A stretch of 64,000 nucleotides of DNA from an uncultured Candidatus Peribacteria bacterium (GTDB lineage Bacteria > Patescibacteriota > Gracilibacteria > Absconditabacterales > Absconditicoccaceae): NCBI GenBank assembly GCA_964545415.1, contig CAZJFP010000001.1:9786-73785 (forward strand), read 5' to 3'. A program made the translations under genes and the position numbers. The notes beneath the pieces are model-generated. The model did no database searches. It was given only the letters and a program-made list of their open reading frames with translations, and was not told the origin of the DNA. Positions 4,823 to 55,775 of the stretch are shown here, piece after piece; position 1 is the stretch's first letter, and each line of letters opens with the position of its first letter.

Positions 4823-4852
4823 TAATATGCTTTACTCTTTATATCCGCCATC

Positions 4853-8087: not shown

Positions 8088-8094
8088 GAATTAT

Positions 8095-11483: not shown

Positions 11484-11509
11484 AACGATTCTATTACTAT
11501 ATAAATTTA

Positions 11510-11593
11510 GATGGGATAGATGGATTGGATGGGATAGATGGGATAGATGGGATAGATGGATTGGATGGGATAGATGGATTGGATGGGATAGAC
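11510..11593. repeat. Tandem 9-nt repeat array (GATGGRWTW units, about 9 copies)
   Basis: The array reads gatgggata gatggattg gatgggata gatgggata gatgggata gatggattg ... It lies between rnpA and the DUF192 gene. Related words occur at 18481-18556 and 21447-21545. Confidence 0.85.
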
Positions 11594-11628
11594 AGATCTA
11601 ACCAGTTTCAAAATCAGTCTAATCCGTC

Positions 11629-12099
11629 TTATTGTATATTTACGAATCTCATCGTCGTTCCCTCAGCAATTCAATGTTTAGCAGCCATCCCTGCATTGAT
11701 TTCCAAAACATATTTTGCTGTTTTGCCTGGTTGGTAGATAGGACATGGATCCGCTGTGCACGGTTCTGCGGTATGTATTTTCACGACATTGAAGTTTTCA
11801 TCTATCCAGAGCATATCCAAAGGAATCAGAGTGTTTTTCATCCGAAAATCATAGATATCTGCTATTTCAAATACAAAAAGCATTCCTGACATCTCAGACA
11901 TCGATTCACGATACATCAATCACCTTTGATGTTCTTCCTGTGTACGAGCGACCTCTACCACAAAGCATTGATCATCTCAGCATACCTTCGGTTCATCATT
12001 ATTTTGATTCCATATAGTCATACATATGACTGCAATAATGCAAAATCCAATTATGAATCGTATTCATTGTCTTTTTACAAAATTCCGTTTGTTTTTCAT
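11629..12099 (-). CDS. DUF192 domain protein
   Basis: This 157-codon ORF is joined through TGA. It has an N-terminal TM segment and the motifs EEHQRGLMYRESMSEMSGMLFVFE and IPLDMLWID. Confidence 0.7.
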
Positions 12100-12231
12100 G
12101 CTAAATTACCTATATAGTTAAATGATTCTAGATGCTAGATTCAAGATTCAAGAACTATTATGTAGCTACACTGTACTTGAATCATGCATCATACATCATG
12201 TATCAATTTTTTATTTGTTTATTTATTTTTC

Positions 12232-14491: not shown

Positions 14492-14680
14492 TTTTTTTCT
14501 TTTTTTTATTGGTTTATATTATTCTTATATATATTTATTATAAAAAGTCAATCTCACTTACCTGTGGACTTCGGAAACAAATTTCCTATATTTCCTTTAA
14601 CTTTTTGTTAACAAACCCTCCCCGACCCTCCCTTGACAGGGCGGGAGCTAAGGAAAATTTATATATTCTGCTCAAAATAT

Positions 14681-15058
14681 ATGAACGAAGAGGAAATCAG
14701 ATATAAAGCATATAATAGAAGCAATATTGATTCTGCAAGAGAAATGAGAAAGAATCCGACACCAGCTGAAGAGAAAATACGGAATGAGATACTTAAGCAT
14801 AGACCATGAGGATATAAATTCACCAGACAAAAACCTATATGATCGTTTATAGTTGATTTCTATTGCGCTAAACTTGCTTTGGCTATTGAACTTGATGGGG
14901 AAGTTCATAAGAATAATAAGGAATACGACAAAGAAAGAACCTCTTTCTTATCTTCAAAATGAATATCGGTAATAAGATATCGAAACAATGAAGTCATTAA
15001 AAATATAGATAAGGTTTATAAAGATATCCTGAATTATATACAAGAGACTGAAAAATAG
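14681..15058 (+). CDS. DUF559 endonuclease-domain protein (Vsr-like fold)
   Basis: AREMRKNPTPAEEKIRNEILKHRPGGYKFTRQKPIGSFIVDFYC ... AIELDGEVH matches the DUF559 pattern. It contains 3 in-frame TGA codons and ends at TAG 15056-15058. Confidence 0.75.
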
Positions 15059-15141
15059 AATATTCCATGTAGCCCCCTGTCAAGGGGGAATGGGGGTTTG
15101 AAAAATTAAATTAAGAAAAATTTTATAATTATCTGTTTGGT

Positions 15142-18192: not shown

Positions 18193-19572
18193 ATGCAACC
18201 ACTCAATTTTTCTCTCATCAATCTCTGATGCACCAAGAACCTGGTCGATAGCCAATATTTCCTTGGTAGACTTTTTGATATGAGCATGAAGTCCCATGAC
18301 TATCAGATAAATTATTTTGCCGATCCCTTCGATAAAGAGACGAAATTTGTATTTGTTAATACATGTGGATTTATTTCGTCTGCAAGAGACGAAGCTGATG
18401 AAACAGTGCAACAGCTTTTGGAAGCGGGAAAGACTGTGTATTTGCTTGGATGTGCTGTACAGTATTACAAAAAGCTCATGAAAATAGACGGAATGGACGG
18501 AATAGATAGAATAGGACCTATCTCATCCAACCCGTCTAATCCATCTGGTCTCCATTATTTGTCCCGAGGCGATGTGAATAAAGTAAATCTAAAAAATATC
18601 TTAGCATGATACGATAGCAAAAGTTACGGCGATTTTGAATTTGCTAGCTCGCCGAGAGTCTATACTAACATAGAACAAAAGTTTGAATATCTCAAAATCG
18701 CAGAATGATGCGATAATCATTGCACGTTCTGTATCATCCCAGACATCAGAGGAAAGCAACAATCGCTCCCGATGGAACAGATTTTGAACGAAGCGAAGCA
18801 GATGATCGCAAACGGCATCCAGGAAATTATTTTGATAGCGCAAGATACGACGAGATACGGAAGTGATCTTTACGGTGAGCCGAAATTATTGGAATTGTTA
18901 AAAAAGTTGGATAAGCTGAAATGAGATTTTCAGTACAGACTCCTCTACTTGTATCCGGATATCGTCACGCTGAAACAAATCAAAGAGCTGAAAATATTGA
19001 AAAAGTTTATCCCGTATTTTGATATTCCCTTGCAACATATTAGTTCACCGGTCTTGAAAAAAATGGGAAGATTCTATGACGAAACATATATCAAAAAATT
19101 TTTGGATCAGATCAAAGATTCCTTTCCGATCAGATTTGTGAGAACGAATTTGATCATCGGATTCCCCGGCGAAACGAAGGAAGACTTCAAAAAACTGATG
19201 AAATTTATCGACGAAACAAAGTTCGATAATATCGCCCTGTTCGAATATCACGATGAGCCGCTAGCGGCTTCAAGTAAATTACCGAACAAAGTTTCTGAGA
19301 GTGAAATCAGAGCGAGATTCACGAAAATCAGACAGCTGGTGAATAGGCAATTGCTCGAGAGAGAGAACGACAGAAAATGAACCCAGGAAGTATGATATAT
19401 TACCGAATTTTATTCTGAATTCTGAACTCTGAATTCTGAATTAATAGTCCGTCCGCGATTGCATTGTCCAGAAATCGATGAAGTGGATGAAATTAGTTTA
19501 CCACAAGTTATCGGGACGTTCGATGAGAAAAAGGAGTTGGAAATAGGCGATAAAATAGTATATACTTTATAA
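18193..19572 (+). CDS. rimO: Ribosomal protein S12 methylthiotransferase
   Basis: It has the MTTase N-domain ([14 protein letters not shown]), the radical-SAM motif [31 protein letters not shown], and a TRAM-like C-terminus. The ORF is 459 aa and is joined through TGA. Confidence 0.8.
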
Positions 19573-19576: not shown

Positions 19577-19738
19577 CGTGCCGTACGTCATTCCGGGAAC
19601 TAATACTACACCACATCATTCCCGGAAACTAATACTACACCACGTCATTCCCGACCTGATCGGGAATCCAATTCGCTATGTAGCAAGATGGATTCCCGCT
19701 TTCGCGAGAATGACGCTGAAAAGTACGGGAATGACGTT
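19577..19738. repeat. GC-rich palindromic repeat cluster (GTCATTCCCG ... CGGGAATGAC words)
   Basis: It has a direct repeat (cgtcattccgggaactaatactacaccac, two copies), the hairpin gtcattcccgacctgatcgggaatcc, then ggattcccgctttcgcgagaatgacg and cgggaatgacg. Confidence 0.75.
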
Positions 19739-20654: not shown

Positions 20655-20785
20655 AATGAAAAATTAAAAATTAATAATTAATAATGAATAATGTTGGTGT
20701 CGCATATTTATTAGCTATTGTAAAATTACAATAGTTCATTTGAGCAATTCTGCCATCATTCATCTTTCATTTTTCATCATTCATT
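20655..20785. repeat. ~130-nt palindromic intergenic element, family B, copy 1
   Basis: The left arm is aattaataatgaataatgttggt, the central mini-palindrome is ctattgtaaaattacaatag, and the right arm is catcattcatctttcatttttcatcattcatt. The right arm abuts the hemW ATG. Confidence 0.8.
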
Positions 20786-22123
20786 ATGTTAAGTCTCTAT
20801 ATCCACATACCGTTCTGTGCCAGTAAATGCGCCTATTGCTCGTTCAATAGTCTGCCTATTTTTCTATTAGATAATTACGAATTACAAATTACGAATTATG
20901 TTGAAGCGTTGAAAAAAGAAATCGATCATTACGCAGAAAAACTTTCTGACAAGGAAATAAAAACATTATATATCTGATGATGAACTCCGAGTAGGATCGG
21001 TATCGAGAGAATCATCGATATCATCGACTACCTCAGAACCAAATTCGATTTTGAAAATATCGCGGAATTGAGCATAGAGTTGAATCCTAATCCAGCCGAA
21101 GAAGTGTTGTTGTTCGTCGATACGATCAGCAAAAAATATAAGGAGTTTCCGAGAGTGAGATTTAGTTTTGGTATCCAAAGCCTCGACGATGAAGTTCTGC
21201 AGATGACTTGAAGAGCATACAATTTCACGCAGATAGCGGAGTTTCTTAGAGAGCTAGTGAAACACAAAAAAGAGAATACTGTATTCAATTTTGACTTCAT
21301 CGCCTTCGGCAAATTCCAGGTCAGCAAGAACGGCCATAAGCAGCTCCGGCACGAATTCAAACGCAATTTTTTGAAAGATTTTTTAAACAGTGGATATGCG
21401 GATAGTATCTCTTTGTATACCCTGGAGAATATAAAAGACAAGAAAAATGGATTAGACTGTATAGACGGATTAGGGCGTCCTTCTATCCCATCTATTCCAT
21501 CTATCCCGTCTATCCCATCTATTCCGTCCAATCCGTCTTATTATTGAACTGATGACGAGATCATGGAAGAGTTTCAAATACTGAAAAAAATCGTCGAAGA
21601 CGCGGGCTACCAAAGATATGAGATCTCCAATTTTGCACATGCTGGCAAAGCTTCCATCCACAATATGGCTTATTGGAAGATGGAGAATTACATAGGTTTT
21701 GGAGTCTCAGCAAGTTCTTTTTTAATGCAGAGTGCAGAATGCAGAATGCAGAAATCTTTCCCTGATTCTCTTGTCCTCGAAGGAGGGAAATCCTGAACTC
21801 TGAATTCTGAATTCTGAATTCGTCGAACGAATACATGAGATATCAAACAATATATCGAAGGAAATCGAAGAGATGAAGAGGAAGTTCAAACGTTGAATGA
21901 GTCAGATATATTGATAGAAGAATTTTTCCTTGGACTCAGGACCAGGGAAGGACTCGCCGATATTTCAAGATACGCTCCGGTGCTTGTTTCCAATTACGAA
22001 TCCTTGATCGCTAGCTATCAGGACGAAATGTTGGTCAATTTTGATGGAAAAAAATTACAGCTTACGGATGAAGGAATGAACCTCTCCAATACCATCATCA
22101 CGGACCTGTTGCAGAAACTATAA
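20786..22123 (+). CDS. hemW: Radical SAM heme chaperone / coproporphyrinogen-III-oxidase-like
   Basis: It has YIHIPFCASKCAYCSF, YIGGGTPS (GGG = three consecutive TGA at 20975-20983) and YEISNFAHAGKASIHNMAYW. Four track fragments share frame 2. Confidence 0.8.
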
Positions 22124-26415: not shown

Positions 26416-26499
26416 TAAACTCTAATTTTAAGTTCTAAATGTTAAGTTTTAAATATTTTTCGTTATGCTTAGCATTAAGCATTCAACATTAAGCATTGT
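26416..26499. repeat. Hairpin with 7-nt-periodic arms upstream of mutL
   Basis: The arms are taattttaagttctaaatgttaagttttaaat and atgcttagcattaagcattcaacattaagcatt. Confidence 0.65.
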
Positions 26500-26643
26500 T
26501 TTAAAGTTTTGTATATTGGTTTTTAGTATTTTCGCTTGAATTTTCAACCACATTACTCATAAATCATTGATGATTTGTAATAGTCCATAAGGAGACAATT
26601 TCGACATTGTTAGCTTTTAGTTGTTAGTTGTTAATTACGTTTA

Positions 26644-27649: not shown

Positions 27650-27747
27650 TATTCAATGATATGTGATACATGATCTATGATACATGAACCATATAACGTA
27701 ATGGCTCTTGCGTCTTGAATCTTGTATCCTGAAACAAGTATTTATCA

Positions 27748-29961: not shown

Positions 29962-29971
29962 ATGCTTCGCA

Positions 29972-30093
29972 AATTGAAAATTAAAAATTAAGAATGAATA
30001 ATGTTGGTTTTGCTGAAACGAACTATTGCATTCTACAATAGCAAATAATAAGACAAAACAAAAATCATTCATCTTTCATTGTTCATCATCCAT
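29972..30093. repeat. Family B element, copy 2
   Basis: The sequence aattaagaatgaataatgttggt ... ctattgcattctacaatag ... atcattcatctttcattgttcatcatcc has the same architecture as copy 1. Confidence 0.8.
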
Positions 30094-30113
30094 TTATATA
30101 GTTATATAAAGTC

Positions 30114-30570: not shown

Positions 30571-30657
30571 CAAGAATTTAAAATTTTAAATGCTAAATTT
30601 TAAATGAAGCATTTTTTTATTTAGAATTTAGAATTTAGAACTTAACATTTAACATCC
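30571..30657. repeat. Hairpin with 7-nt-periodic arms downstream of nrdR
   Basis: The arms are aaattttaaatgctaaattttaaatgaagc and atttagaatttagaatttagaacttaacatttaac. Confidence 0.65.
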
Positions 30658-38203: not shown

Positions 38204-38245
38204 TACTCAATTACAAATTTATCATTTATCATCTATCATTTAGGT

Positions 38246-41200: not shown

Positions 41201-42931
41201 ACCGCAACGTTTACTATCACTACCAGAGACTATAGCCAAACACCTGCCACAGGATCATTTGCATTTGCAAACTTTACGAGTATACCCCTAGATACATTCA
41301 CCGGTAGCACCGTTACGATCGCAGGCATTGAAACTGGCGTATTAGCATCTATTGCCTTTGTTCCTACAACGACTTCGTGACGGCTGGAGATCTACTCGTG
41401 AGGAATACTCGTGAATTCATGAACGACCGGTCTACTCGTCCACAATGGCAATCAGATCAAAGCTATTGCACAAAGCAGTTCAGGATATTCACAAACAGTA
41501 ACTGGGTATGTCACTATAGGACTCTGAACCGGTATGTTTACCATCAAGACCAAATGATCTGACGTCACTCCTCCTACCGCCCCTACACTGACGTATCCAT
41601 TGACTGGAGAAGAACTCTTCTTTGTAACTTGGGAATGGACTGGAGCTACCGATACGGGATCAGGTATCGAAGGATATGTCTATCAAATTGCTGAAGATAG
41701 TTCATTTACTGATATCGTAGATACTGGATTTATAGCTACTACAGGAACATTTGGACGGCCAAGCACTGCATTTGATGCAACTAGCGATACGTTCTATCGA
41801 AGACTCCAGGCAAGAGATAGGGATGGCAATCTTTCCTCACGAAGCAATGCTGGACGTTTTGAAGCGATAGATTCTGATGAACGAAATTTTGATGAAATAG
41901 AAAACGCAAATCTCAGGACCTATTATGATTCCAATGAAATCACCCTGGAAGGTATCAAGGACGGCCTTTCTCTCCAGGCTACTATCGATAACAACGGAAC
42001 GCTCTATGAAAACGAAAATGAAAAAGGTACAGGAACTTTGATCCAAAATGATGATACCTTATTCATCAATCTCAGATCAAGCAATAGATATGACAAAACC
42101 GTTTCTTCAATCCTTACGATAGCAAATAGGGAACTCGAATTTACTGTTACTACCAAAGAGCAATCTGATGACGGATGTACGCTTAACGAAGATGATGAAA
42201 CCACGATCCAAGATATCTTCGATGGTCTTGTAGAAAATTATTCATGAGATGAAAATATGTATGAAGAATTCCTCTACACGATGCAAAGCATGTTAGAAGA
42301 TGAAATCGATTTTACCAATGATTGTAATCTTCAGTATCTCCAAGATCTCATCAACGATGAAATCTGAATCACCCCTGAAAGTCCGACCGCTACTACAGGC
42401 GCACATATAGCACCTAACTGTAAACAATATACTGTAGCTTTCGATACTACAAGATCTGCATATAGTTCACCGAACTTCAAGGTGGTTACCTATTTTGCAA
42501 ACCGTGATGCACTGACGAGATATATCGATAGCAAGAATCCTGGAGATTGCCATATCACTACCTATGGTGTCTCATCATGGATATTCACCAATACCGATCC
42601 TACAAAGCACATTGCAGCCAATGGAAAAATCTATACCGTACAAACGTCCCCTCAAGGATGATATACATCAAGCGATTTTTCTTCTGCAAAATATTTTTCT
42701 ACCCTCAATGCCCTTCGCGCTTATATCGACACCAATAATCCTCCTCCAGAGGTATGGAATCATCAGGTAGATACCAGTTTCTCTCCGCAAGTATACACTG
42801 CACCAAATGGAAAAGAATATACTATTTATCACACCAACAGAGGATATATGTCCTACAAACTCATGAAAGTAAGATACTTCTCTACTCTAGCAGAATTACA
42901 GGCATATATACAGAAAAACAATACTAGATAA
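38246..42931 (+). CDS. Giant secreted/surface protein 2 (1561 aa) with parallel beta-helix repeats, FN3-like module and the same C-terminal module
   Basis: Frame 2 is open from ATG 38246 to TAA 42929-42931; I walked it across all junctions. It has many N-x-x-I-Y-N-N-type beta-helix repeats. The C-terminal ~450 aa are paralogous to those of gene 35498..38203. Confidence 0.75.
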
Positions 42932-42947
42932 TAAATAGAGAGTAAAG

Positions 42948-42977
42948 AAACCTGACTATGACGTCAGGTTTTTTTTC
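42948..42977. terminator. Intrinsic-terminator-like hairpin after giant surface protein 2
   Basis: The sequence is aaacctgac tatgac gtcaggtttttttt. Confidence 0.6.
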
Positions 42978-43047
42978 TTATATAACAAAAAGGCGAATGA
43001 TATTCGCCCCTACATTTTTTTTTGAATTCTGAATTATGAATTCTGAA

Positions 43048-43584
43048 TTAATTTACTATCTTGTGCATTATTCAGTTAATGAGCTTCGGTGCTCATTCAT
43101 CAGAATAACGCTTTGCAAGCTCGATCATTTCATTGAGCACCACTTCTTTCGGGGTATCCAACTCTTTTCGTTCGGTATACCCAAGCAAAAATATTGCCTG
43201 ATCCAAAGGATCCATCTGATGATATCCGAATGTTTGGATATGTTCATCTACTTTTTGTTCAATCTCTTCTCTATATTTCGTGAAATGGATACCGACCTTG
43301 GATATGTAATCGAAATCGATATCTTCAGCTGGCCGTTCATCAAAGAAACAGTCAGCAAATTCTTTGAAATCTTCCAAAGTATATATCTTCACATACTTTT
43401 CTATTTCTTCCTTGAGCTTTTCTTTTTCCTTGTCATACATCCCCGCATCGGTTTTGAAGACATAATCAATGAATAATGAGTCAGTAAGCACTTTATCCTG
43501 TTGCATCAGATTAACAAAAAAACAATGCTGATACAAATAGGATAACACTATTTTTCTCGCATTGATTCTTTGTTTGATATTCAT
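43048..43584 (-). CDS. nusB: Transcription antitermination factor NusB
   Basis: It has INARKIVLSYLYQ ... LDQAIFLLGYTE ... ELAKRYSDEGAPKLINGIMHKI. Two in-frame TGA codons lie near the 3' end, and the real stop is TAA at 43048-43050. Confidence 0.75.
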
Positions 43585-43682
43585 GAGCTGGGAATAATGA
43601 ACTAAAGAACTACTTCGCAATTTCTAATTTTCAATTTTAAATTTCTAAATTCTGAACTCTACATTCTGAATTCTGAATTAAT

Positions 43683-43913
43683 TTATGCGTCTACTACTTT
43701 TTCCTTGCTCTTGCTCTTGATCGTCAATACTTGTTTCCCTTTGTAATATCAGCAAACTGGACAAACTCTGTGAGAGAGCTTCTTAGCTCCACAGTTTTTG
43801 CATACGGAAATCTTGTAGGTATCTACCATTCTTTGGATATTTAATCCTTCCCATGTCGAATGCCTCTGGCGTCCTTTTGCTTGGGAAATTTTCTTTTTTG
43901 GTCCGATTGTCAT
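43683..43913 (-). CDS. rpmF: 50S ribosomal protein L32
   Basis: This 76-aa ORF is not in the track. It has KGRQRHSTW ... [23 protein letters not shown], with the Gly in CGYY encoded by TGA. Confidence 0.8.
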
Positions 43914-43945
43914 TGTATACTAAAAAAAACGATAAAATGCAGTGA

Positions 43946-44218
43946 TTACTTAACCTCTACGACAGTCTTGAGGTATTTTCTTCCGTCGAATCTTCCTACT
44001 TTTTTCTGTTTGAAAGCGACAGTTCCATCAACTTTTGCATGAACAGAGAAATCACTACCGAGATAGGTGTTTTTTCCACATTCATATTTGGATCCCTTTT
44101 GTCTGATGATGATATTTCCTGCAGTCGCTTTTTGACCACCGAACACCTTCACTCAACGATACTTTGGTTTTGAATCCCTAAGGTTTTTTGCCGATCCACC
44201 GGCCTTTTTGTGTGCCAT
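43946..44218 (-). CDS. rpmA: 50S ribosomal protein L27
   Basis: The sequence [45 protein letters not shown] is the classic L27 N-terminus. Confidence 0.9.
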
Positions 44219-44370
44219 TTGTAAACTATAACTAACGAGTAAAATACGTAATGTAATTCAGTGGGGTTGTATATATGGATTTCCCTAGTATTTTCAAGCT
44301 TTATATATCAAATTGATATATAATCCTCTCATCTGAACGAATTTCAAAACAAATCCCTTCAGCGTTCGAA

Positions 44371-47300
44371 TTATTCTTGAATATCTATTCCGTGATCTTT
44401 TCTGTAAATTTCACCTACTGGCAAGAGTCTTCCAATAATAACGTTTGACTTCAAATCGGAAAGCATATCTATAGATCCTTTCAGTGATGAAGCAACCATA
44501 ACTCTGATTGTCTCCTGGAAAGATGCTGCAGAAAGCCATGAATCCGTCTCTTTTGCAATATTAGTCAATCCGAGTGCCAATCTTTTTCCTTTGGCAGCTT
44601 TCTTGCCTTCTGCTTCCAATTCCTGATTTACTTTGATAAATTCTTCATATTTGATGTATGTTCCTGGAATGAAACTACTATTTCCTGAATCTTCTATAAA
44701 GACTTTTGAGAACAATTGTTTGACGACCACTTCGATATGTTTATCATTAAGATCCTGTCCTTGAGCTCCATAAACCTTTTTAGTCTCCTTGATGATGTAT
44801 TTTTGTGCTTCAAGGTCTCCAACAATATCTTTGTACTCTTTGATGGATAATGCTCCTGTTGTCAGAATTTCTCCTTTGAAGACATCTTCTCCATCCTTTT
44901 TGATAGCATTGAGTCCTGTAACCGCTTTTACATATTCTTCTTGAATACCGAGAACGATATGATCAGCTTTTACTTCCAACACTTTTCCGCCTTCCTTTAC
45001 CTTGAGTTTGCTCTTTCCTTTGGATGCGAATATTCATCCTTTTTTCACTTCTTCCCCCTTTTTTACATCTATTTTGTACCCTGGTTTGAGTAAGTAGTTT
45101 TTTTTCTGATATTCAGAGATCACTTTCACATATCTAACTTTATTGGCTTCATAGAAGGAAACTTTTCCGTCAAATGGGGTGATAATAGCAGGCATTTTTG
45201 GATCTCTTACTTCAAACAATTGTTTTACCCTATCGATACCTGTTGTTTGTTCTCATCATTTTGCGACTCCTCATTCATGGAACGTATCGAGTGTCAACTG
45301 CGTTGATGGTTCTCCAATAGATTGCGCAGCAATGATTCCGACAGGTACTCAGATCTCAACTATTCTTCTTGTAGAAAGATCTGTTCCGTAGCATTTTTGA
45401 CAGATACCGCTGATACTGTGACATACTAATGGCGTTCTTACCTTCACCTCCTCTATTTCCATATCCTGGAGCAATTTGACATTCTCCTTATCCAAGAGAT
45501 CGTCCTTACTCAAGATAACATTTTTTTTCTTATCCAATACATCTTCTGCAAGTACTCTTCCAGCGATAATAGTGTAGAAATTCTCCCCTTTCATCTCAGA
45601 TTCCTGTTTGGAGAAAATGACATATTTTTCTGTTCCGCAATCATGTTCCCTGATGATAACTTCTTGTGACGCATCACAGAGTTTTCTCGTCAAATATCCT
45701 GATTCCGCTGTTCTCAATGCTGTATCCGCTTTTCCCTTTCTTCATGCATGCGCGGAGATGAAATATTCAATAGGTCTCAATCATTCAACGAAAGAGTTTT
45801 TGATCGGCAACTCGATAATCTCTCCTTGAGGATTAACAACTAGACCCTTCATACCTGCAATCTGCGTCATATGCGTCTGTGATCATCTCGCTCATGAATC
45901 AACCATCGTATAGAGATCCTGTCCTGGTCCAGTAATGGACTTCAAGCTCTCCTCTATCTTCTTTTTGACATCGGTCCAGATCTTAATGATGAACCTATGT
46001 TTCTCCTCTTCAGAAAAGAATCCTTTGAAATAATATTTATAGATTTCATTTGTCTTGAGATCACCTATTTTCAGTTCATCTTCTTTTTCTTTAGGCACCT
46101 TCATATCCAAGATATTTACTGATGTGGATCAGAGCGTAGCGTATTTGAATCCAAGATCCTTGATATCATCTGCGACATAGACAGTTGTCTGCATATCATA
46201 TTCATCAAATATCCTACTCAAGAGTTTTTTTAGGTCTTTATTTTTTAGCTTTGTATTGATAAATCTGATTCTTTCAGGAAGGATAGAATTGAAAATAACT
46301 CTTCCTACTGTGGTTTCTATAGGTTCTTTGTTATAATTGAGCAGTATTTTGTCTTTTACGAAGATCTCTCCGTTACCATAACTGTCCAATACATTTTCTA
46401 TGCTTGGAAAAATTCCTATAATAGGTTTTTTCTTTCGTTCCTCTTCTGTAGTATATTGCGGTGTTCTCTGATCATAAAAATCCGTAAGATAATACGCTCC
46501 AAGCACCATATCCTGGGAATGAGCGATAGTAGGATCTCCTGAACCTGGCTTCAAAATATTTTTGTCAGCTGCAATCAGCTCTCTTGCCTCTTTCTGCGCT
46601 TCGTCAGAAATAGGCAGATGGACTGCCATCTGATCTCCATCAAAATCGGCATTGAATGAAGGACATACTAATGGATGGATACGGATGGTCTTTCCTGGCA
46701 TCAATCTAATCTTAAATGCTTCGATGGACAACCTATGTAATGTCGGTGCACGATTGAGCAGAACATATTTGTCTTTGATCACTTCTTCGAGGAATTTCAA
46801 TGCTAATGGCGATTCTTCTTTGATGAGTTTCTCTGCCTGTTTAGGGGTATATACTATTTTCTTTTCGATAAGTTTTCCGATGATGAACGGCGTAAACATC
46901 TTGACCGCGATATAGATCGGCAATCCGCATTCATCCAATTTGAGCTCAGGACCAACGGTAATGATAGACCTTCCTGAATAATCCACTCTCTTTCCGAGCA
47001 AATTCTTTCTGAAGATACCTTCTTTTCCTGAAAGCATATCTGACAATGATTTGAACACTTTGATACCAGCTCCGCTGCTTCCTGCTGCACCTGCTTTTTC
47101 TCCAACCAACAAATTATTTACTGATTCCTGGAGCAATCTGATTTCGTTTTTCTTGACGACATCAGGCATTCCGACCTGGATCATTTTTTTCAATCTGATA
47201 TTTCTCATCAGTACGCGCCTATAGAACAGGTTAACGTCAGATGATGCAAATTTTCCTCCTTCCAATTGAACTACTGGTCTCAAATCAGGGGGTATGACTG

Positions 47301-48189
47301 GCAATTTTCTGATTACCATATTTTCTGGCTTAACACCGGAAACATGAAGATTGATCAATAATTTTATCAATGCAATCAATTTTTTTCTCTGCTCCTCTGA
47401 TTTGGTGTCTTTGAATATTTGGATCGTTTTTTTGATCTCTTTCTCTACATCGATATTTTGGAGCATCCTCAAAATTGATTCAGGTCCTGATTGGAATATG
47501 ATAAGGTTGGAAAATCTGGAGAAGATATTTCTGAAATCGTTTTCGAAGATAGTCGATCCTACATCTAAATCAGAGATAATAGATTTTATCCTATTGAATT
47601 CTTTTTCAAGTGTATCCTTATTGTCGTTGAAAAGTTTTTCGAGTTCTTTGAGTTTCTTTGGATTCTCTTTTTCTTTGGCAGCTTCTTCTTTGTAGAGGGT
47701 CTCAAGTTCTTTGATTTTGTTATCAAAATCCTCTTTGATCTTTTCCTTGATCTTCTTATCAAAATCTTTGTCCAGTTTCTGGACCATAATATATTTTACA
47801 AAGCTCAAAATCTTGTCTATCTCATTGGAAGAAAGACCGAGCAATTGATTGACTCCTCCTGATGGACTTGCCTTATACCATGCATGCAAAACAGGGACAG
47901 CTAATTCGATATGCCCCATCCTAGATCTCCTCACTCTCGAACTCGTGACTTCTACTCAACATCTTTCACATACGATTCCCTTATATCTTACTCCTTTGTA
48001 CTTACCACAGCTACATTCGTAATTTTTCACTGGTCAAAAAATGGATTCACAAAACAATCAACCTTGTTTAGGTTTCCCTGTCCTATAGTTGACTGTATCA
48101 GGATTATCCACTACACCATGAGACCATTTCTCGATGTCTTCCATCGCAGCAAGCCTAACAATCAATCCCTCGAATTTTGTTTTGTTCAT
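44371..48189 (-). CDS. rpoC: DNA-directed RNA polymerase subunit beta'
   Basis: Five track fragments share one frame of 1273 codons. It has the N-terminal zinc-finger region ([23 protein letters not shown]) and [12 protein letters not shown]. Confidence 0.95.
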
Positions 48190-48225
48190 ACTACGCTCCT
48201 TAGTAAGAAAATAAACGACTTATTT

Positions 48226-48304
48226 CTTAAGTGCTAAGTGTTGAATGCTAAGTGTTAAGTTGTGGTATTTTTTTATTTAGAACTTAGCACTTAGAACTTA
48301 GCAT
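48226..48304. repeat. Long hairpin with 7-nt-periodic arms between rpoB and rpoC
   Basis: The left arm is taagtgc taagtgt tgaatgc taagtgt taagtt. The loop is T-rich. The right arm is tttagaa cttagca cttagaa cttagca. The arms are largely complementary. Confidence 0.75.
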
Positions 48305-48311
48305 AATAGTT

Positions 48312-51300
48312 TTATTCAAGTTCACCAAAGTCTTCCATCTCTTGGATCACGTTATCGATAATCTCTTCTTTTTCCTGTCCGGTTGTATCTCCTTCCTCTT
48401 CAATAACTGTAGCTTCTCCTTCACCCGTGATGGTACTCTTCATAACACCAGAAAGCCCTAGATTAACGATTTTCTTGATCCTATCTTCCTGGACAACTTC
48501 CAACTCTTCTACCGTCAATGGCTCTATATTCTGACAAAGTCATTTGAATAGGTACGTCAACAAATTGAATGATTCAGGTAATCCACCAATCTTTGGTTTC
48601 TGTCCCTTGATGATAGATTCATATAATTTATTTCTTCCGATAACATCATCTGATTTGACGGTCAACATCTCTTGCAAGGTATAGACTGCAGAATATGCTT
48701 CCAATGCCCAAACTTCCATCTCTCCAAATCTCTGACCTCCTTGTCTGGACTTTCCTCCGAGCGGTTGCTGGGTAATCAATGAATATGGTCCTACAGCTCT
48801 TGCATGGATTTTATCCTCGACCATATGTACCAATTTGAGGATATGCATATATCCTACGGTCACTTTTTGATCATATTTCATACCGTTTGCACCATTGTAG
48901 ATATCAAATTTCAAATCATCGAATCCACACATCTTGGTAAGTTCCGTCAAATCTTCAGAAGAAAATTTGGAAAATGTAGGAACCGCAAAACTTACACCAA
49001 AATGCTTAGCGATAAATCCTAACTGAGATTCAAATAGCTGTCCCATGTTCATACGAGAGATTACTCCGAGAGGATTGAGACATACATCTACTGGTTTACC
49101 GTCTTCGGTAAACGGCATATCCTCTTCTGGAACAACAATAGAGATAATACCCTTGTTTCCATGTTTTCCCGCTAATTTATCTCAGACTTCGATCTTTCTC
49201 GTACTTGCGACATAGACTTTGATCTTCTTTCTCACTCCTGCCATAAGATTATCTCCTTTTTTTGCATCGAGGATGACCACATCGATCACTTTTCCTTCAT
49301 TGCTTCCTGATGGTACATATAATGAAGTATCTTTTACATTTTTTGATTTATCTCCGAAGATTGCTTGGATCAACTTTTCTTCTGGCGTCAGTTCTCCTTC
49401 AGATTTTGGCGTGATCTTTCCGATCAAAATATCTCCTCATTTGACGATAGATCCGATTCTGATTACTCCATCATCGTCCAAATTTTTGAGCTTGATCATA
49501 GAAACTCCTGGGATATCGTTTGTTGTTTCTTCAGGCCCAAGTTTGGTATCTGCTACCTCTATTTCGTATTCATCGATATTTATGGATGACAATTCATCAT
49601 CTTTTACCAATCTCTGTGAGATAACAATCGCATCCTCATAATTGTATCCTTTCCATGGCATAAACGCTATCCTCAGATTCTTTCCGAGTGCCATTTCTCC
49701 TTGTACGGAACATGGACCTTCAGCGATAAGATCTCCTTTTTTTACTTTTTGTCCTAATGACACTCTAGGGACCTGATGCATACATGATTTACTATTTGAT
49801 CTTGCGAATACTATCAGTTGGTATTCCTTTATTCCCGTCTTATATTTTATCTTGATTCTCTTTCCATCAACATAAACCACTTCTCCTTCAGCTTCTGCTT
49901 TGAGTACTGCATGAGTCATCTGTACGATATCTCTTTCCAATCCTGTTCCTACCAAAGGTGCGTCATTTTTCAATAACGGCAATGCTTGTCTCTGTTGATT
50001 GGTAGCGATAGATGCACGCACCGCATCGTTATGATCAACGAATGGAATCAATGAGGTGTTCGGTGAGAATATCTGTGATGGATTGACGTCGATATGTGTA
50101 ACATCTCCTACATGGAACATACCCATTTCATTGAATTGTCTTGCAGCAACACGGACATCCGTCATATTATTATATGCATCGATAGGTGTAGTTGCATCAG
50201 CTATACAGCATTTTTCATCCATTTCTGGCGAAATATACTCCAACTCGTTGGTGAAAAACGGTTTGACAGCAATGGTTGTTCCTAGTTTTCCATATATTTT
50301 TTCTATCTCTTTTGCTGATTTTTCATCGATATAATGATCTTCTTTGACTATTACTCTCTTGAGTTGTTTCCCTTTGGCATCCAATTCATGGATATCACGG
50401 TGAGCTATCCTATTGATCAATAATTCTTTTTTGGGAGCTACTTCACGAGCAATCTTGAGTGCTGGCGTTTCCAAAAATCATTCATCGTTGACACGAGAAT
50501 ACAATGATTGGTAAATTACCAGTCCGATATTTTGTCCTTCAGGTGTTTCGATAGGACATATTCTTCCATAATGCGAAGGGTGAACATCACGCACTTCGAA
50601 TTTGGCAGTTTCTCTTTTGAGTCCTCCAGGTCCAAGGGCAGTGATTCTTCTTTTATGTTCGATTTCTGATAGCGGATTGATCTGATCCAAAAACTGAGAT
50701 AATTGTGAAGTTGCAAAGAAACTCTTGATAGCATTATCTATAATCTTGAAGTTTACCAAATCAGTAATTTTGAGCGGACTTTCCAAATTCAAGATAGAAA
50801 GCTTTCCCTTGATGCTCTTTACGAATTTTCTCATGACCGGCTGCAGATGTGCATAGAGGATCTCTCCCATGGATCTGATACGTTTATTGGAAAGATGATC
50901 AGAGTCGTCTGTATAATATCATTTTTTAAAATTTGAGATATTGAATAAGTATTTCAATGCTCCTACAAGATCTTCACCATCGAAGATATTGGCAACATCA
51001 CCATCGAGTGGCTTCTTGATTCCTAATTTTGCATTCACTTTTCTTCTGGCAATTCTTCCCATAAAGATTCTCTCTGGAGAAAGGAATTGATTCTTGATAT
51101 AATTGAGCGCACTTTCCTGATCGATCAATTCGCCTGGTCTGACTTTGTTGTAGACAAATTCCGCTGCAGATAAAGCGTCGGTAGTACTATCTTTTTTGAG
51201 TGTTGTTTCGAGATAATTGAAATCTTCCTCATCAAACGTATCCTTGAAGAGTTCTCTAATACTTTCATCTGTCTCTAATCCAAAAATCCTGAGCAATGTC

Positions 51301-52088
51301 GTGATAGGAAATTTTCTGGATTTATTGATTCTTGCTACTACGACTCCAGATTTTTCTGTCTGGACTTCCAACCATGGTCCATTTTCAGGAATAACCTTGA
51401 ATGAATATCTAAATTCCTTTTTAGCAAAAAATATACCATATGATCTTATGATCTGGGAGATAATAACTCTCTCAACTCCATTGATAATATAGGATGCAGA
51501 CGGCGTCATTAGCGGTAAAATACCGATATTTGCACGTTTGCTGAAGAGCGTTTTTTCCGTTTTCTTCTTACCATCATCACGGACTTCATTGAGTTTTACT
51601 TTACCAGTAATGATACCTCCATAGGTCAATTCTTTTTTCTTACAGGTTTTTACATCATCGATAGGCTCAGAAATTTTGATATCATCTATCTCTACATACA
51701 TCTTTTCACCTGCTATATCCCATACTGGATTAATACTATCAAAAAGCTTATTCGTATATTTTTTGATAAAGTCATCATATCCTCTTTTCTGTAAATCAAG
51801 CAAATCAGGGAATCCGGCGAATTTTCTCGGATTACGCAAAAATATCCTCTCTCCCTCCCTATAGAAGTCTTTGAAGATTTCTGGTATCCTGATAGGTTTA
51901 CTAGGTTTGCTTATCGCCTTGGTCGGTTTAGTGAGAGACACCTTGACTGCAGCTTTTGGAGCGGCTTTTGGAGCGGCTTTTTTAGCTGGTTTATTCGTCG
52001 CTTTCGGTGCTGATTTCACTGATTTGACTACTGGTTTCTTTGTCTTTTTTATTTCTTTTTTCCCTTGAGAAGATTTTTTTTGTGTCAT
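48312..52088 (-). CDS. rpoB: DNA-directed RNA polymerase subunit beta, with K/A/P-rich N-terminal tail and acidic C-terminal tail
   Basis: Six track fragments share one frame of 1259 codons. Motifs are [23 protein letters not shown] and [16 protein letters not shown]. Confidence 0.95.
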
Positions 52089-52189
52089 ATGGGTATCTGT
52101 GATAAGAAAATAAACAATGAATATGGTCTACGCAGGTGTATTCAAGAATTTTCTCTCTCTGAAAACAAAAAAATTCAAAAACCGATGGT

Positions 52190-52345
52190 TTACGGTCTTT
52201 GAACAGTCAGTTGTTTTCTGCCTTTTCTTCTCCTTCTGCTAAGCAAGGCCCTTCAAGATGCTGTTTGCATTCTTTCCCTGAAGCCGTGCTTCGTTATTCT
52301 CTTGTTTCGGGAATATTTTCTCACCCTTCTTAGTTTGCTGGCCAT
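52190..52345 (-). CDS. rpmH: 50S ribosomal protein L34
   Basis: This 51-aa ORF is not in the track. Its sequence is [51 protein letters not shown], with one TGA Gly. Confidence 0.85.
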
Positions 52346-52385
52346 TGTACTATATTGTTAAGTGGTAAATTCTACTTTTGGTACT

Positions 52386-52434
52386 AGGTAGAAGGTATAA
52401 GGTATAAGGCCTTGTCCTTTATCCCTATTCCCTT
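52386..52434. repeat. Short hairpin with 7-nt word arms upstream of rpmH
   Basis: The sequence aggtagaaggtataaggtataagg faces ccttgtcctttatccctattccctt. Confidence 0.6.
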
Positions 52435-52445
52435 GTCTCTAATTA

Positions 52446-53012
52446 TTATTTTTTGTATTCCACGAAGCCTAATTCTCTTGCTCTCAATACCGCAGTCTTG
52501 AGCTTTTTTTGCACTGATACAGGATTGTTCGTATATGCTCTAGGCTTGATATCACCGAATCTCGTGATATATTTTCTGAGCATTACTACAGACTTCCGAT
52601 TGAGATATTTTTCATTTTTCTTGTCCGCAAAAAAGGAAACTTTTTGTCAAAGCTTCTTCGGATCCCATGTTTCTATGACTGCTCCAAGTTCTTCATTTAC
52701 TTTTGCAAATTTCAAAAACTCTTCATTCTTATCCATCTTGAAGATATAGTATCTCTTGATTGCCTTGTTGTACAAGAGATTCTTTTTGATTACATCTAAA
52801 TCTTCAGCTTCTGCCTGAATATAATATGAATACACATATGCCTTGTCATTTCAAGCTTTATTGCTTAAATTGTACCTCAATTGCTGGAGACCTATATCGT
52901 CATGTTCGACAATAGTCTTTTTGATGAGACTTTCGAATTCAGAAACGATTTCTTTGCGGTTTGTCTCTGACAACGATGCATCAACCAACAACACTACATC
53001 ATACTTTTGCAT
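52446..53012 (-). CDS. rpsF-rpsR: 30S ribosomal proteins S6 and S18 encoded as one in-frame ORF (apparent fusion)
   Basis: It has an S6-like N-terminus (MQKYDVVLLVDASLSE...LRYNL...YVYSYY), a single in-frame TGA at 52647-52649, then an S18-like C-terminus (LRKYITRFGDIKPRAYTNNPVSVQKKLKTAVLRARELGF). No TAA/TAG occurs before 52446. Confidence 0.7.
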
Positions 53013-53038
53013 TAGTTTATTATGTAAGGTGGTAAAAA

Positions 53039-53839
53039 TTACGATCCGATCGCCATTCTAACGAACGCAAGGACTTTCATGTCGGCAGGAAGTATTTCCT
53101 TGACCTTCTTGGCTCCGTCCCTGATATATTCCTGCTCAAGCAGAACGTTTTCCGCCAACGCCTTCTTGATCTTGCCGTCGACGATCTGAGCTATCATAGC
53201 TTCCGGCTTGCCGGCTGCCTTGAGTTCAGCTCCGAATTCTTCTGTCATTTTAGCTATTTCGTCCTTATCGACTTCATCGAATGATACATAGGTAGGATTC
53301 ATAGCAGTCACCTGCAAAGCAACTTCCTTGGCAGCTTCATCATTTCCTCCTTCAAAGAAAACCAAAGTCGCAACCTTATTTCCTGGATGATTGTAGATGA
53401 ACGCTTTTTTGGAAGTCACCAAAACGCCTCCTATTTTCATATTTTCTCCTGTCTTGCCCATAAACTCTTTGACTTCATTTTCTACTGTCTCAGCTAATGT
53501 AGGATCAAGATGTTCCAATGCAGAGATTTCTTTATCTCCTGCAGCAATCTTTTCGAGAATAGAATCGAACAATGCTTGAAAATTTTCGTTTTTTGCAACG
53601 AAATCTGTCTCACAAAGCAATTTGAGACCTACGGTCTTTCCGTTTTTCTCGACAATCTTGACGATGCCTTCCTTGGTTTCTCTTTCAGCCCTATTTCCTG
53701 CTTTTGCGATACCTTTCTTTTTGAGGATTTCTTGTGCTGCTTCCAGATTGTCACCTGCTTCAGCCAATGCTTCCTTGCAGTCCTTGAGAGGAGCAAAAGT
53801 GATCTCCCTCAATTGTTTCAATAGTTCTATATTGGACAT
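53039..53839 (-). CDS. tsf: Elongation factor Ts
   Basis: It has LKQLREITFAPLKDCKEALAEAGDNLEAAQEILKKKG (the UBA-like N-terminus). The 266-aa ORF is uninterrupted. Confidence 0.9.
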   Translation of the reverse strand: MSNIELLKQLREITFAPLKDCKEALAEAGDNLEAAQEILKKKGIAKAGNRAERETKEGIVKIVEKNGKTVGLKLLCETDFVAKNENFQALFDSILEKIAAGDKEISALEHLDPTLAETVENEVKEFMGKTGENMKIGGVLVTSKKAFIYNHPGNKVATLVFFEGGNDEAAKEVALQVTAMNPTYVSFDEVDKDEIAKMTEEFGAELKAAGKPEAMIAQIVDGKIKKALAENVLLEQEYIRDGAKKVKEILPADMKVLAFVRMAIGS

Positions 53840-53844
53840 AATAT

Positions 53845-53960
53845 CAATTAATAATTTAAAATTAATAATGAATAATGTATGATTTGTTTAGTTATTGACT
53901 ATAGCCTACAATCGCAATTGTCCCATCATTTTTCATTGTTCATTATTCATTTTTCATTTC
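53845..53960. repeat. Family B element, copy 3
   Basis: The sequence is aattaataatgaataatgtatga ... cctacaatcgcaattg ... catcatttttcattgttcattattcatttttcatt. It overlaps the 3' end of CDS 53943..54413. Confidence 0.75.
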
Positions 53961-54413
53961 TTTTTTTGGTTCTTCCATTTTAACTTCGAAGAGGGTCATA
54001 ATTCGCCCGCCTAGTGCATGGAATATCGCCATCTTACTTTGTTCCTCGATAGTATATTTACCATCTCGGGCACGTTTGATGAATATACCCATAAAAACCA
54101 CCATTACAATAACCAAAAATATCGGGAGATACTTGATGATAGGGAGTAGCATAAATACAGAAGTCGCTACCACTAGAAGCAGAAATATTGCCCACCATCC
54201 CAATGCTTGCTTGAGATGAAAAGATTCAAAATCACTCTTCTTTTGGTTATTGAGCGCTACGACGATGATTCCTATCAGGAGATACATCATCACTGCTCTC
54301 TTTTTCTCCGTACTGCTAGGCGTATACACCTCTTTGGAAGGTGATGCGGCAGCAATCGTTTCTAACGTTTGCCCAACAGCGTCGGACTTGATTGGTTCTT
54401 CCATATGCATCAA
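53943..54413 (-). CDS. Small integral membrane protein
   Basis: This 156-aa ORF has three hydrophobic segments. Its last codons overlap the right arm of a repeat element. Confidence 0.55.
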   Translation of the reverse strand: MMHMEEPIKSDAVGQTLETIAAASPSKEVYTPSSTEKKRAVMMYLLIGIIVVALNNQKKSDFESFHLKQALGWWAIFLLLVVATSVFMLLPIIKYLPIFLVIVMVVFMGIFIKRARDGKYTIEEQSKMAIFHALGGRIMTLFEVKMEEPKKEMKNE

Positions 54414-54454
54414 AGAAAAGATAAATTGCTCTGTGCATTGTTATAGTAAGGAAA

Positions 54455-55117
54455 TTATCTGAACATGCTATTCAGAACAAAATCCACGCTCTTATGGCTT
54501 CACATATTGGCGATAATAATGCTATCTTCTGCCCACCGTCTGGAAAAATTAGTTCCAGCGATAACAATATTCTGAATATTAGGAGTCTTTGTTATCTCAT
54601 TGATGAAATTATCCATCATCTGACCATCCAATACGATGATCAATTCTGGTTTTCTCGTAAGATTTTTTACTCCCTTATAGATTTTCAGGACTCTTGCGAG
54701 TTTTCTCTTGTATACCAACTGCTCTTTTTTGGTCAACGACAGATAATTTTCGCTGTCCACGAAACGAGCCATAGTATTCATAGATTCTATCCTTTTCTTG
54801 AGCGTCTCGAAATTTGTAAGGAATCCAGAAGGAAGTTTGTAATTGAGATAATTCACTCCGTACTTCTCACCGAGCTTCTCCAATTCGTCAGCGTACATCT
54901 TCTTTTCGGAAACGATCAAAATCTCTTTCCCGTCAGCCTTGGCTTGTTGGATTTTCTTTTTTGCGTTCTCGATCTGCTCTATGATGATTTCGGGATTGAT
55001 CACTGCTATATTGTTGACTACCCCAGCCCGATATTTGTTGGTCTTTGGGTGAGCTTCGCTTTTGAGCGTACCAATATGAGCTTGCGCCTCAATCACATCG
55101 TTTACAGATATACTCAT
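54455..55117 (-). CDS. rpsB: 30S ribosomal protein S2
   Basis: It has VIEAQAHIGTLKSEAHPK and ILIVSEKK. The ORF reads through TGA at 54500 to TAA at 54455-54457. Confidence 0.85.
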
Positions 55118-55235
55118 AATGTTTACGATTTGATAAAATAAAGTGAATTTGGAATTTATAATTTGAAATTTGCAATTTGAAAACGCATATACATCGTTTT
55201 ACAATTTACCATTTCGCCTTTCAAATTCAAAATTC

Positions 55236-55625
55236 TTACTTAAGCGTGATAGTTGCACCTTCAGCCTCCAATTTTGCCTTGATACCTTCAGCTTCTTCGT
55301 ACTTAACTTTCTCCTTGATAACGGTAGGTGCCTTTTCTACGAGATCTTTAGCTTCCTTGAGTCCAAGTCCAAGTACTTCCTTGACTACCTTGATAACTCC
55401 GATTTTTTGCTGTCCGATATCAGTCAATTCGATATTGACGGAATCAGCATTTCCACCAGCAGCTCCTGCATCTGCAGCTCCGCCAGCAGCTCCTGCAACT
55501 ACCATAGCAGCTGCGCTTACGCCAAATTCTTCTTCCAATCCTTTAACTAATTGGTTTAATTCTACCGCACCCATGTCTTTGACCAGATCCATGATCTGTT
55601 GTGCGTTCTTTGATAATTCTGCCAT
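55236..55625 (-). CDS. rplL: 50S ribosomal protein L7/L12
   Basis: It has an Ala/Gly hinge and the C-terminal domain KIGVIKVVKEVLGLGLKEAKDLVEKAP...EAEGIKAKLEAEGATITLK. Confidence 0.95.
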   Translation of the reverse strand: MAELSKNAQQIMDLVKDMGAVELNQLVKGLEEEFGVSAAAMVVAGAAGGAADAGAAGGNADSVNIELTDIGQQKIGVIKVVKEVLGLGLKEAKDLVEKAPTVIKEKVKYEEAEGIKAKLEAEGATITLK

Positions 55626-55775
55626 TCTGTATGGAATAAAGTAATAAAATACTTGATATGTTGAAGCGATCAAATAATGAAACGCTTAAACGACTAACTA
55701 TAAGATTGAAATATTGAAAGATGCAAACATTGAAAGATTAATTTTTCCATTCTCCATTTTCCAATTTTTCCATTT

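Follow-up and report, generated by a model that had tools for sequence, protein, structure and literature searches.

Heptamer-armed palindromes as candidate dispersed insertion elements in a TGA-recoded Absconditabacteria (SR1) genome

The spacer between rpoB (48312-52088, minus strand) and rpoC (44371-48189, minus strand) of contig CAZJFP010000001.1 (assembly GCA_964545415.1) contains a long imperfect hairpin, here called H, whose two arms are runs of 7-nucleotide (nt) words. The 64,000 nt analysed around it (contig positions 9,786 to 73,785) are referred to as the window, and coordinates are those of the window unless a relative is named. We show that H belongs to a large set of heptamer-armed hairpins that are periodic beyond chance, that differ between strains by whole units, that replace one another as cassettes, that are present at sites which are empty in relatives, that include families dispersed over several loci, and whose anatomy is not that of terminators. 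These hairpins had been pointed out in an earlier note on the same DNA, the claims of which are taken up where results bear on them.

Genetic code and the hairpin of the rpoB-rpoC spacer

Translated with the standard bacterial code, the window yields short open reading frames (ORFs), and long genes appear when TGA is read as sense; rpoB and rpoC are both open only in this way. Because the TGA codons of rpoC align with conserved glycine, not tryptophan, residues of solved beta' chains, the organism uses genetic code 25, in which TGA encodes glycine. The genomes nearest to the window are those of candidate division SR1 (Absconditabacteria). ORF lists made with code 11 are misleading for the window, and a chloroplast or Mycoplasma reading of its fragmented code-11 ORFs was ruled out by the glycine alignment and by the SR1 neighbours. 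The genes around H follow the minus-strand order L10 leader, rplJ, rplL, rpsB, a membrane-protein gene, tsf, an rpsF-rpsR fusion, rpoB, rpoC, rpmA, rpmF and nusB.

On the plus strand, H consists of the words cttaagtg, ctaagtg, ttgaatg, ctaagtg and ttaagtt, followed by a loop and by atttaga, acttagc, acttaga and acttagc. An inverted-repeat search returned arms of 27 nt with 78% complementarity, and H has a clamp-like GTTGTGG-T-run, without the core of the family B described below. The minimum free energy of H is -27.3 on the plus strand and -19.6 on the minus strand, compared with -14.8 and -7.3 for shuffled sequences (z-scores of -4.4 and -5.7). In Rfam searches only the L10 leader passed the gathering threshold, and the match of H to a microRNA precursor was spurious (28 bits against a cut-off of 89 bits).

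Comparison of the spacer in the window and seven relatives reveals that its content changes from genome to genome. The window has a hairpin of the CTAAGTT / TTAGCAC type, L086, L087, L088 and L118 have one of the AGGGACA / GTCCC type (91-93% RpoC identity where listed; folding z of -3.8 in L086 and -4.3 in L088), L119 (91% RpoC identity) has one of the AGTGAAT / ATTCACT type, and no hairpin is present in L089 (90% RpoC identity, spacer of 62 nt) or L001 (spacer of 38 nt). The flank beside the rpoC ribosome-binding site is conserved among the window and L086 to L119, and words of the H type are found at other spacers in L083 and L119. Given these differing types, or none, at one position, the hairpins are not conserved regulators.

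Periodicity, anatomy and distribution of the hairpins

A lag-k self-match scan found 20 lag-7 tracts in the window against 0.4 in shuffles, and other lags gave at most three tracts each, except for the multiples 14 and 21 and for 9 and 18, which belong to a separate 9-nt repeat. When shuffling was confined to the spacers (39 spacers, 4.7 kb, 31% GC), the real spacers held 15 lag-7 tracts where the shuffles gave 0.07, and none of the 200 shuffles exceeded 1. Tandem Repeats Finder returned approximately 35 arrays of period 7 or 14, and nearly all of the longest inverted repeats of the window are heptamer-armed. The 7-nt tandem runs thus exceed chance, as do those of heptameric long simple-sequence repeats (LSSRs). 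The same arrays are present in three independent assemblies of close strains and are therefore no assembly artefact. A need for stop codons in all three frames was rejected as the cause of the period: AT-rich spacers have stops everywhere, and several of the words have none.

Folding statistics vary among the elements. Hairpins F (folded over 30571-30657), C (21720-21825) and A (12114-12212) have z-scores of -4.8, -3.2 and -3.1, respectively, family-B copies range from about -2 to -3.6, and hairpins D (26416-26499) and I (52386-52434) fold barely better than shuffles (D has a z of about -1). A strict automatic count recovered three periodic hairpins against none in shuffles, a low number that reflects the degeneracy of many arms, which fall short of the tract threshold; for hairpins with unique words, the best complement of an arm among the 22 arms tested was its own partner. 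With period 7 enriched and H folding beyond its shuffles, the earlier note's account of word-periodic hairpins with locus-specific words stands largely as written, and the shuffled-sequence control that it had named as a possible refutation leaves the periodicity intact. Among the loci it listed, H, F and family B are good hairpins and D and I are marginal; the arrays at 43021-43052 and 43621-43684, which it had also counted as hairpins, are solitary direct arrays.

Each element is a long imperfect inverted repeat in which a 5' arm of purine-rich 7-nt words faces a 3' arm formed by their pyrimidine-rich complement, and many copies carry a stable mini-hairpin at the tip. This polarity (5' purine/G-rich, 3' pyrimidine/C-rich) is kept in 21 of 22 hairpins. 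An orientation bias of the replicating strand, with the G-rich arm always on the left, was ruled out: a palindrome reads alike on both strands, so the polarity is intrinsic and involves no replichore effect. Across the clade, 76 tracts comprise 38 canonical words, which are AT-rich (A 260, T 149, G 62, C 61); runs of G occur only in the AGGGACA type of the relatives.

Word families recur within the window. Family B has four copies of 114-132 nt with a composite layout, namely an (AATNAAT)n arm, a GTTGG clamp, a T-rich stretch, an apical mini-hairpin CTATTG-N6-8-CAATAG, an A-rich stretch and an (ATTNATT)n arm. In other strains the same core lies between unlike arms (TGCTAAG / ACTTAGA, AATGATA / ATTTATC, or an ATTCAAA 3' arm with a degenerate 5' arm). 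The TTCTGAA family is present at four window loci where none is expected by chance, and three of its arrays have the variant unit ACTCTGA in common. Alongside the heptamers there is a class with 9-nt words (TAGATGGGA / TCTATCCCA) at 11508-11592, 18483-18514 and 21449-21538, and at 5930-6047 of L082; it likewise forms hairpins and is translated in frame within rimO and hemW.

The elements (Table 1) occupy approximately 15 of the 39 spacers of at least 30 nt, whether co-directional, convergent or divergent. They often start 3-13 nt past a stop codon and run to just short of the ribosome-binding region that follows, and three arrays are located inside ORFs.

Table 1. Position and composition of heptamer-armed elements, solitary arrays and the 9-nt-word hairpin in the window.
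Element	Position	Strand	Location and composition
Hairpin H	48226-48304		rpoB-rpoC spacer; 5' arm 48226-48262 (TAAGTGC-type), then GTTGTGGTATTTTTTT, 3' arm 48275-48304 (CTTAGAA/CTTAGCA)
B1 (family B)	20655-20786		AATTAAT/AATGAAT arms, GTTGG clamp, apical core CTATTGTAAAATTACAATAG; 3' arm ends at hemW start codon
B2 (family B)	29971-30096		upstream of nrdR
B3 (family B)	53846-53959		membrane-protein gene / tsf spacer
B4 (family B)	56433-56555		inserted between L10 leader (56556-56686) and rplJ start
Hairpin C	21724-21822		in frame within hemW; AATGCAG / CTGAATT arms, apical TTTCCCT..AGGGAAA mini-hairpin
Hairpin A	12120-12208		divergent spacer; GATTCAA / TTGAATC-type arms
Hairpin F	30575-30652		convergent nrdR / isochorismatase spacer; AATTTTA / ATTTAGA arms
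Hairpin D, weak	26420-26499		TTAAGTT / ATTAAGC arms
Hairpin I, weak	52383-52436		downstream of rpsF-rpsR fusion; AGGTATA / CCTTGTC arms
TTCTGAA array, solitary	19412-19442	+	translated inside rimO (EFYSEFGTLNSELI); +6 amino acids vs L117 ortholog
TTCTGAA-family array, solitary	43023-43049	+	adjoins two canonical terminators; not a hairpin
TTCTAAA / TTCTGAA direct array, solitary	43619-43679	+	rpmF-nusB spacer; not a hairpin
ATTTATC array (N), solitary	38217-38239	+	identical to 3' arm of B-type element at non-orthologous L084 site
GAATTTG array, solitary	55145-55182	+	rplL-rpsB spacer
AATTACG array, solitary	20873-20898	+	inside hemW (NYELQITNY); no length change vs orthologs
TTGTTAG array, solitary	26607-26633	+	9 nt upstream of start codon
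ATGATAC array, solitary	27656-27687	+	6 nt past FKBP gene stop
9-nt-word hairpin, sister class	11508-11640		words TAGATGGGA; heptamer-armed B-type element in its place in L083

Turnover between strains and insertion into genes

Strains L083, L084 and L085 are 85-98% identical to the window over its positions 9-32 kb and allow individual elements to be followed. Lag-7 tracts number 14 in L083 and 11 in L084 (about 20 kb each) with other lags nearly empty. In the SR1 relatives L001 and L024, whose RpoC identity is 79% and 75%, 21.7 kb from each contained not a single period-7 tract. Arms gain or lose whole units of 7 nt, sometimes 14 nt, between strains: B1 has one more 7-nt unit in the window than in L083 and L084, and hairpin F differs from its L084 counterpart by an indel of one unit. 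Copy number in the arms of B1 and F therefore changes by whole units between close relatives, as in heptameric LSSRs. An 18-nt indel in a tip also separates the close strains from the window.

In the 3' arm of hairpin C the window has ctgaatt, and A-to-C changes have produced ctgcatt, the exact complement of the 5'-arm word aatgcag, in one unit in L083 and in two units in L084. The word families AATGAAT / ATTCATT and AGTGAAT / ATTCACT differ by a compensatory double change. Together with the exact 7-nt unit indels of B1 and F, the substitutions that move the arm of hairpin C towards a perfect complement support a common generative process, which the earlier note had suggested.

Whole inserts are also exchanged. 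At 11484-11628 the window has a 9-nt-word cassette where L083 has a B-type element, with sharp boundaries; the spacer upstream of a uvrB-like gene holds three different inserts in three strains; and the spacer downstream of rimO has a content unlike that of L083 and L084, which share a hairpin there. The window sequence at that site (19588-19700) consists of a 29-nt tandem repeat (2.3 copies) and a GC-rich palindrome (cgggaatcc..ggattcccg), and the hairpin of L083 and L084 at the same position is of the AATTTGA / TCAAATT heptamer type. A further insert, at 14592-15140, is a 125-amino-acid ORF with a DUF559 domain (Vsr-like endonuclease fold) between GC-rich inverted hairpins (ccctcccTTGACAGGG / CCCTGTCAAggggg), the spacer of which holds B-type hairpins in L083 and L084 instead, and some hemW homologs are annotated as DUF559 fusions. 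This suggests that DUF559 inserts and hairpin inserts use the same hot spots.

Every spacer of the rplJ-nusB cluster is long in some genomes and short in others. The gap between the L10 leader and rplJ measures 147 nt in the window, where leader and gap together span 56409-56686 and B4 is present, and 28-44 nt in four relatives; B4 is found only in the window. The leader (47.3 bits in Rfam) is set apart from the rplJ start by B4, an insertion that might disturb L10 autoregulation.

Insertion into coding sequence is best seen in hemW. Hairpin C encodes an insertion of approximately 30 amino acids that is absent from six compact orthologs, all of which align with the motif SASSFF(G/E)NK-R(R/W)TNT at this position, and because they share this one motif the compact form is ancestral. 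The hemW genes of L116 (filled) and L117 (empty) are 89.3% identical and differ by exactly 90 nt at the hairpin C site. The window and L116 genes are 73.0% identical outside the element and 83.8% identical inside it, including the non-repetitive tip of 34 nt. By these alignments, the same element either entered one hemW site in separate lineages or moved between lineages. The tip had no match in the viral collection searched, which leaves carriage by phage unsupported. Across strains the element adds 90, 87 or 69 nt, all multiples of three, and the ORF stays open. In rimO, compared with L117 (the sole ortholog without the arrays compared), the TTCTGAA array adds 6 amino acids and a 9-nt-word array adds 14. 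Arrays carried by ORFs use words without TAA or TAG, and several contain TGA, which is glycine here. The remark in the earlier note that these hairpins do not resemble a single mobile sequence is not supported, given several word families at non-orthologous loci and insertion/absence and cassette-replacement polymorphisms with sharp boundaries.

The design extends beyond this clade. When metagenomes were scanned with a B-arm pattern of 21 nt, B-type hairpins turned up in four further contigs with recoded TGA and between ribosomal-protein genes of an Oscillospiraceae metagenome-assembled genome (L113, 4260-8090), in which hairpins whose arms are (AATTAAT/AATGAAT)n and whose tip is GC-rich (tctgcgaagcagac) each end directly at GGAGG-ATG; L113 is a Firmicute that uses the standard code and shows the same design. 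(AATGAAT)3 is present in 78 contigs of the viral collection, some of them packed with heptamer arrays and hairpins. Given these 78 contigs, horizontal transfer across phyla is not claimed from the Oscillospiraceae arms; the phenomenon thus has a wide distribution, and likeness between words may result from convergence. Four contigs filed as viral in IMG/VR (L136, L137, L147 and L128) carry 1.5-3 heptamer tracts per kb, many as inverted pairs, with the words AATGATC, AGAGTGA, AATTGAC and AATTCAG.

Several other features of the window lie apart from the elements. A single 188-amino-acid ORF (52446-53012, minus strand) joins an N-terminal ribosomal protein S6 domain to a C-terminal S18 domain, a fusion kept in all relatives fetched. 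Positions 1-8100 have a lower GC content (0.30) and no heptamer array, and encode MATCAP-like, RimK-like and ATP-grasp proteins, a GNAT acetyltransferase and a 7TM-transglutaminase-associated protein; this region may be a peptide-modification island of separate origin. A single ORF of more than 2418 codons (56742-63998, minus strand) continues past the window end.

Origin of the elements and relation to known systems

The hairpins behave like selfish repeats and are probably dispersed palindromic insertion elements with slippage-prone arms. Small non-coding palindromic repeats, comparable to MITEs (miniature inverted-repeat transposable elements), to the paired inverted repetitive extragenic palindromic (REP) sequences called REPINs and to Rickettsia palindromic elements (RPEs), would have spread through one sub-lineage of Absconditabacteria and colonised spacers and a few insertion-tolerant protein loops. 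The 7-nt register would come from replication slippage, which is the published explanation for the over-representation of heptamers, and arm complementarity may be maintained by hairpin-templated correction (intra-hairpin template switching, as in quasi-palindrome correction), by selection for pairing, or by both. New copies would arise through a structure-directed or site-directed copy-and-paste step performed by a putative enzyme. The elements would be dispensable for the host and would not serve as terminators, and any effect on mRNA, for example as intercistronic stem-loops, would be a by-product.

Several observations weigh against insertion elements of this kind. The scan of window proteins turned up neither a transposase nor a REP-associated tyrosine transposase (RAYT, an IS200/IS605-like Y1 transposase) nor any other candidate for a mobilising enzyme, and RAYT was also not found in the Pfam tables of related loci. 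No clear target-site duplication is seen at the L116/L117 or rpoB-rpoC junctions, which are AT-rich and ambiguous. Within one family, copies share only about 71% identity, a low figure for an element that was active recently, and the wide occurrence of (AATGAAT)n arrays in the viral collection indicates that similar words can arise independently in different genomes. In addition, B1 persists with co-varying arms in a relative at 71% HemW identity, and a hairpin of some type is present in the rpoB-rpoC spacer of six of the eight genomes, both of which could mean selection for structure.

That possibility is the main rival, although we consider it unlikely: the hairpins would be selected RNA elements, that is, intercistronic stem-loops for mRNA processing or stability, for translational insulation, or for 5' stabilisation upstream of start codons. 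Their location in the stretch from a stop codon to the following ribosome-binding region, in many cases 3-13 nt past the stop, their co-varying arms, their persistence in the rpoB-rpoC spacer despite sequence turnover, their single polarity, and the Oscillospiraceae ribosomal-protein-operon hairpins that end right at GGAGG-ATG would all fit such elements. However, the hairpins are absent from close relatives with short spacers, each spacer is expanded in only some genomes, and elements lie as well between divergent or convergent genes and within ORFs. Moreover, in 15 of 19 hairpins (from the window, L083, L086, L088, L113, L116 and L117) the mRNA-sense strand forms a less stable fold than its antisense counterpart, opposite to what selection on mRNA structure predicts. 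Since the antisense strand folds better, a mismatch that is C.A in the mRNA is G.U on the antisense strand; this asymmetry could reflect a mutation process biased by strand or selection that disfavours mRNA stems of very high stability.

A purely local origin, in which a seed expands in place by 7-nt slippage and is then made palindromic by template switching with no copying between loci, appears improbable. It would account for words that differ by locus, for the unit indels between strains, and for same-word heptamer arrays in unrelated genomes, and a possible seed exists: the empty hemW site of L117 (GGCAATAAAAGA) resembles the first units of the filled site of L116 (TTCAATGAAGCA). It does not readily account for a hemW element that is more similar between L116 and the window, 34-nt tip included, than are the genes that host it (84% against 73%) when the site is empty in L117, nor for the non-periodic core and clamp of family B at four or more loci, nor for the ACTCTGA variant unit common to three TTCTGAA arrays.

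A more speculative form of the insertion-element account, and a doubtful one, is that an undescribed copy-and-paste system, directed by structure, uses the hairpins as its substrates. Its enzyme would recognise the clamp together with the mini-hairpin at the tip, the element would move as a folded single strand into preferred sites (after stop codons, and at one hemW codon position in separate lineages), and each event would re-synthesise or homogenise the heptamer arms in a fixed 7-nt register. If true, such a system would explain why 7 nt is the favoured bacterial repeat unit, and would constitute a new route for peptide insertions into essential proteins of candidate-phylum bacteria.

It is very improbable that the hairpins are intrinsic, possibly bidirectional, terminators or attenuators. 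They form hairpins at gene ends, their 3' arms are U-rich on either strand, and the earlier note had named termination among their possible roles. A terminator scan of 42000-57000, however, called none of them: their stems have fewer than three GC pairs and no T-run follows. Ordinary terminators with a GC-rich stem and a T-run are located separately (42944-42975, plus strand; 43011-42989 and 52204-52173, minus strand), some a few nt from an array (42944-43011), and the hairpins occupy obligatory co-transcribed units (rpoB-rpoC and the leader-rplJ gap) and ORFs. The terminator-like hairpin and T-run at 52173-52204 (minus strand), approximately 85 nt upstream of the rpoB start, recalls the rplL-rpoB attenuator of Escherichia coli. 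Arrays bound by a DNA-binding protein that recognises 7-bp heptads, such as the omega repressor/centromere heptads of inc18 plasmids, would likewise be laid out as direct and inverted tandem 7-bp units, and are hardly credible here because one protein needs one word and 38 are present, in arrays that also lie inside ORFs and are gained and lost between strains. Elements linked to tRNA were ruled out, as no tRNA genes were found in the window.

Heptamers are the most over-represented of the longer simple repeats in bacteria, and their origin is unexplained (PMC4692102, PMC4679880). The present lineage offers many word families in one genome, close strains and relatives of graded divergence for parts of the region, clean filled and empty sites, and a non-repetitive core, and with such material in one lineage slippage, arm-to-arm correction and insertion become separable and measurable. 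With TGA read as glycine, words rich in TGA are able to enter essential genes (hemW, rimO), where they are translated. The practical effects are inflated spacers, an L10 leader split from rplJ, and misled gene callers.

The literature searched contained no description of such elements in SR1 or Gracilibacteria. The earlier note knew of no described repeat class with this design; nevertheless, both the over-representation of heptameric repeats in prokaryotes (PMC4692102, PMC4679880) and inverted heptamer pairs (PMC4692102; see also PMC4679880) have been published. Xanthomonas genomes each contain 70-75 convergent inverted pairs of GGGAATC arrays that are capable of forming stem-loops (Rehm et al. 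2015, PMC4692102). Prokaryotic long simple-sequence repeats built of 7-nt units are covered by Mrazek et al. 2007, as cited in PMC4679880 and PMC4692102. The cyanobacterial short tandemly repeated repetitive (STRR) sequences and the TAACTGA repeats are heptamer arrays of intergenic regions that differ between strains by 7-nt indels. In view of the Xanthomonas and cyanobacterial precedents, the word-periodic hairpin design is therefore not new.

The Xanthomonas pairs resemble the present elements in being intergenic tandem heptamers arranged as convergent pairs able to form stem-loops, in placing the G-rich arm first, and in varying strongly in length and sequence between close relatives. They differ in using one G-rich, quadruplex-forming word where dozens of AT-rich words are used here, and the composite type with a conserved apical core and the in-frame gene insertions set the present elements apart. 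Likewise, LSSR, STRR and TAACTGA repeats share the over-represented heptamer unit, an intergenic location often just upstream of start codons, a sporadic phylogenetic distribution, and indels in 7-nt steps; they are mainly direct arrays of one or few words, whereas inverted pairs and cassette-like turnover dominate here. TAACTGA repeats are a reported heptamer class of Beggiatoaceae, cyanobacteria and Bacteroidetes, and no TAACTGA dimer or tandem was found on either strand of the window.

Like REPIN/REP sequences and MITEs, the elements are short, non-coding, extragenic imperfect palindromes that are multicopy, form hairpins and are polymorphic for presence. Paired inverted short palindromes forming an extragenic hairpin, as in REPINs, are found here, and the terminal inverted repeats, small size, lack of coding capacity and several copies of MITEs are found in family B (four copies) and in the TTCTGAA family (four loci), with insertion/absence polymorphism at hemW (L116 and L117), at B4 and in the cassette swaps. 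REPINs and MITEs repeat one conserved sequence of 20-40 nt; here each arm has an internal period and its sequence changes from copy to copy, no RAYT or parent insertion sequence was found among the window proteins, and no clear target-site duplication was seen at the ambiguous, AT-rich junctions. RPEs are small palindromes that are inserted in frame in protein genes and translated, and their arms are not tandem heptamers. Hairpin C in hemW and the array in rimO (array M) resemble them in that insertion is in frame and the ORF remains open; membership of the RPE family is unlikely, judged by host phylum and by the periodic arms. New here are the phylum of the host, the large number of AT-rich word families, the composite element with its core, the recurrent replacement of elements at one spacer, and the in-frame invasion of essential genes.

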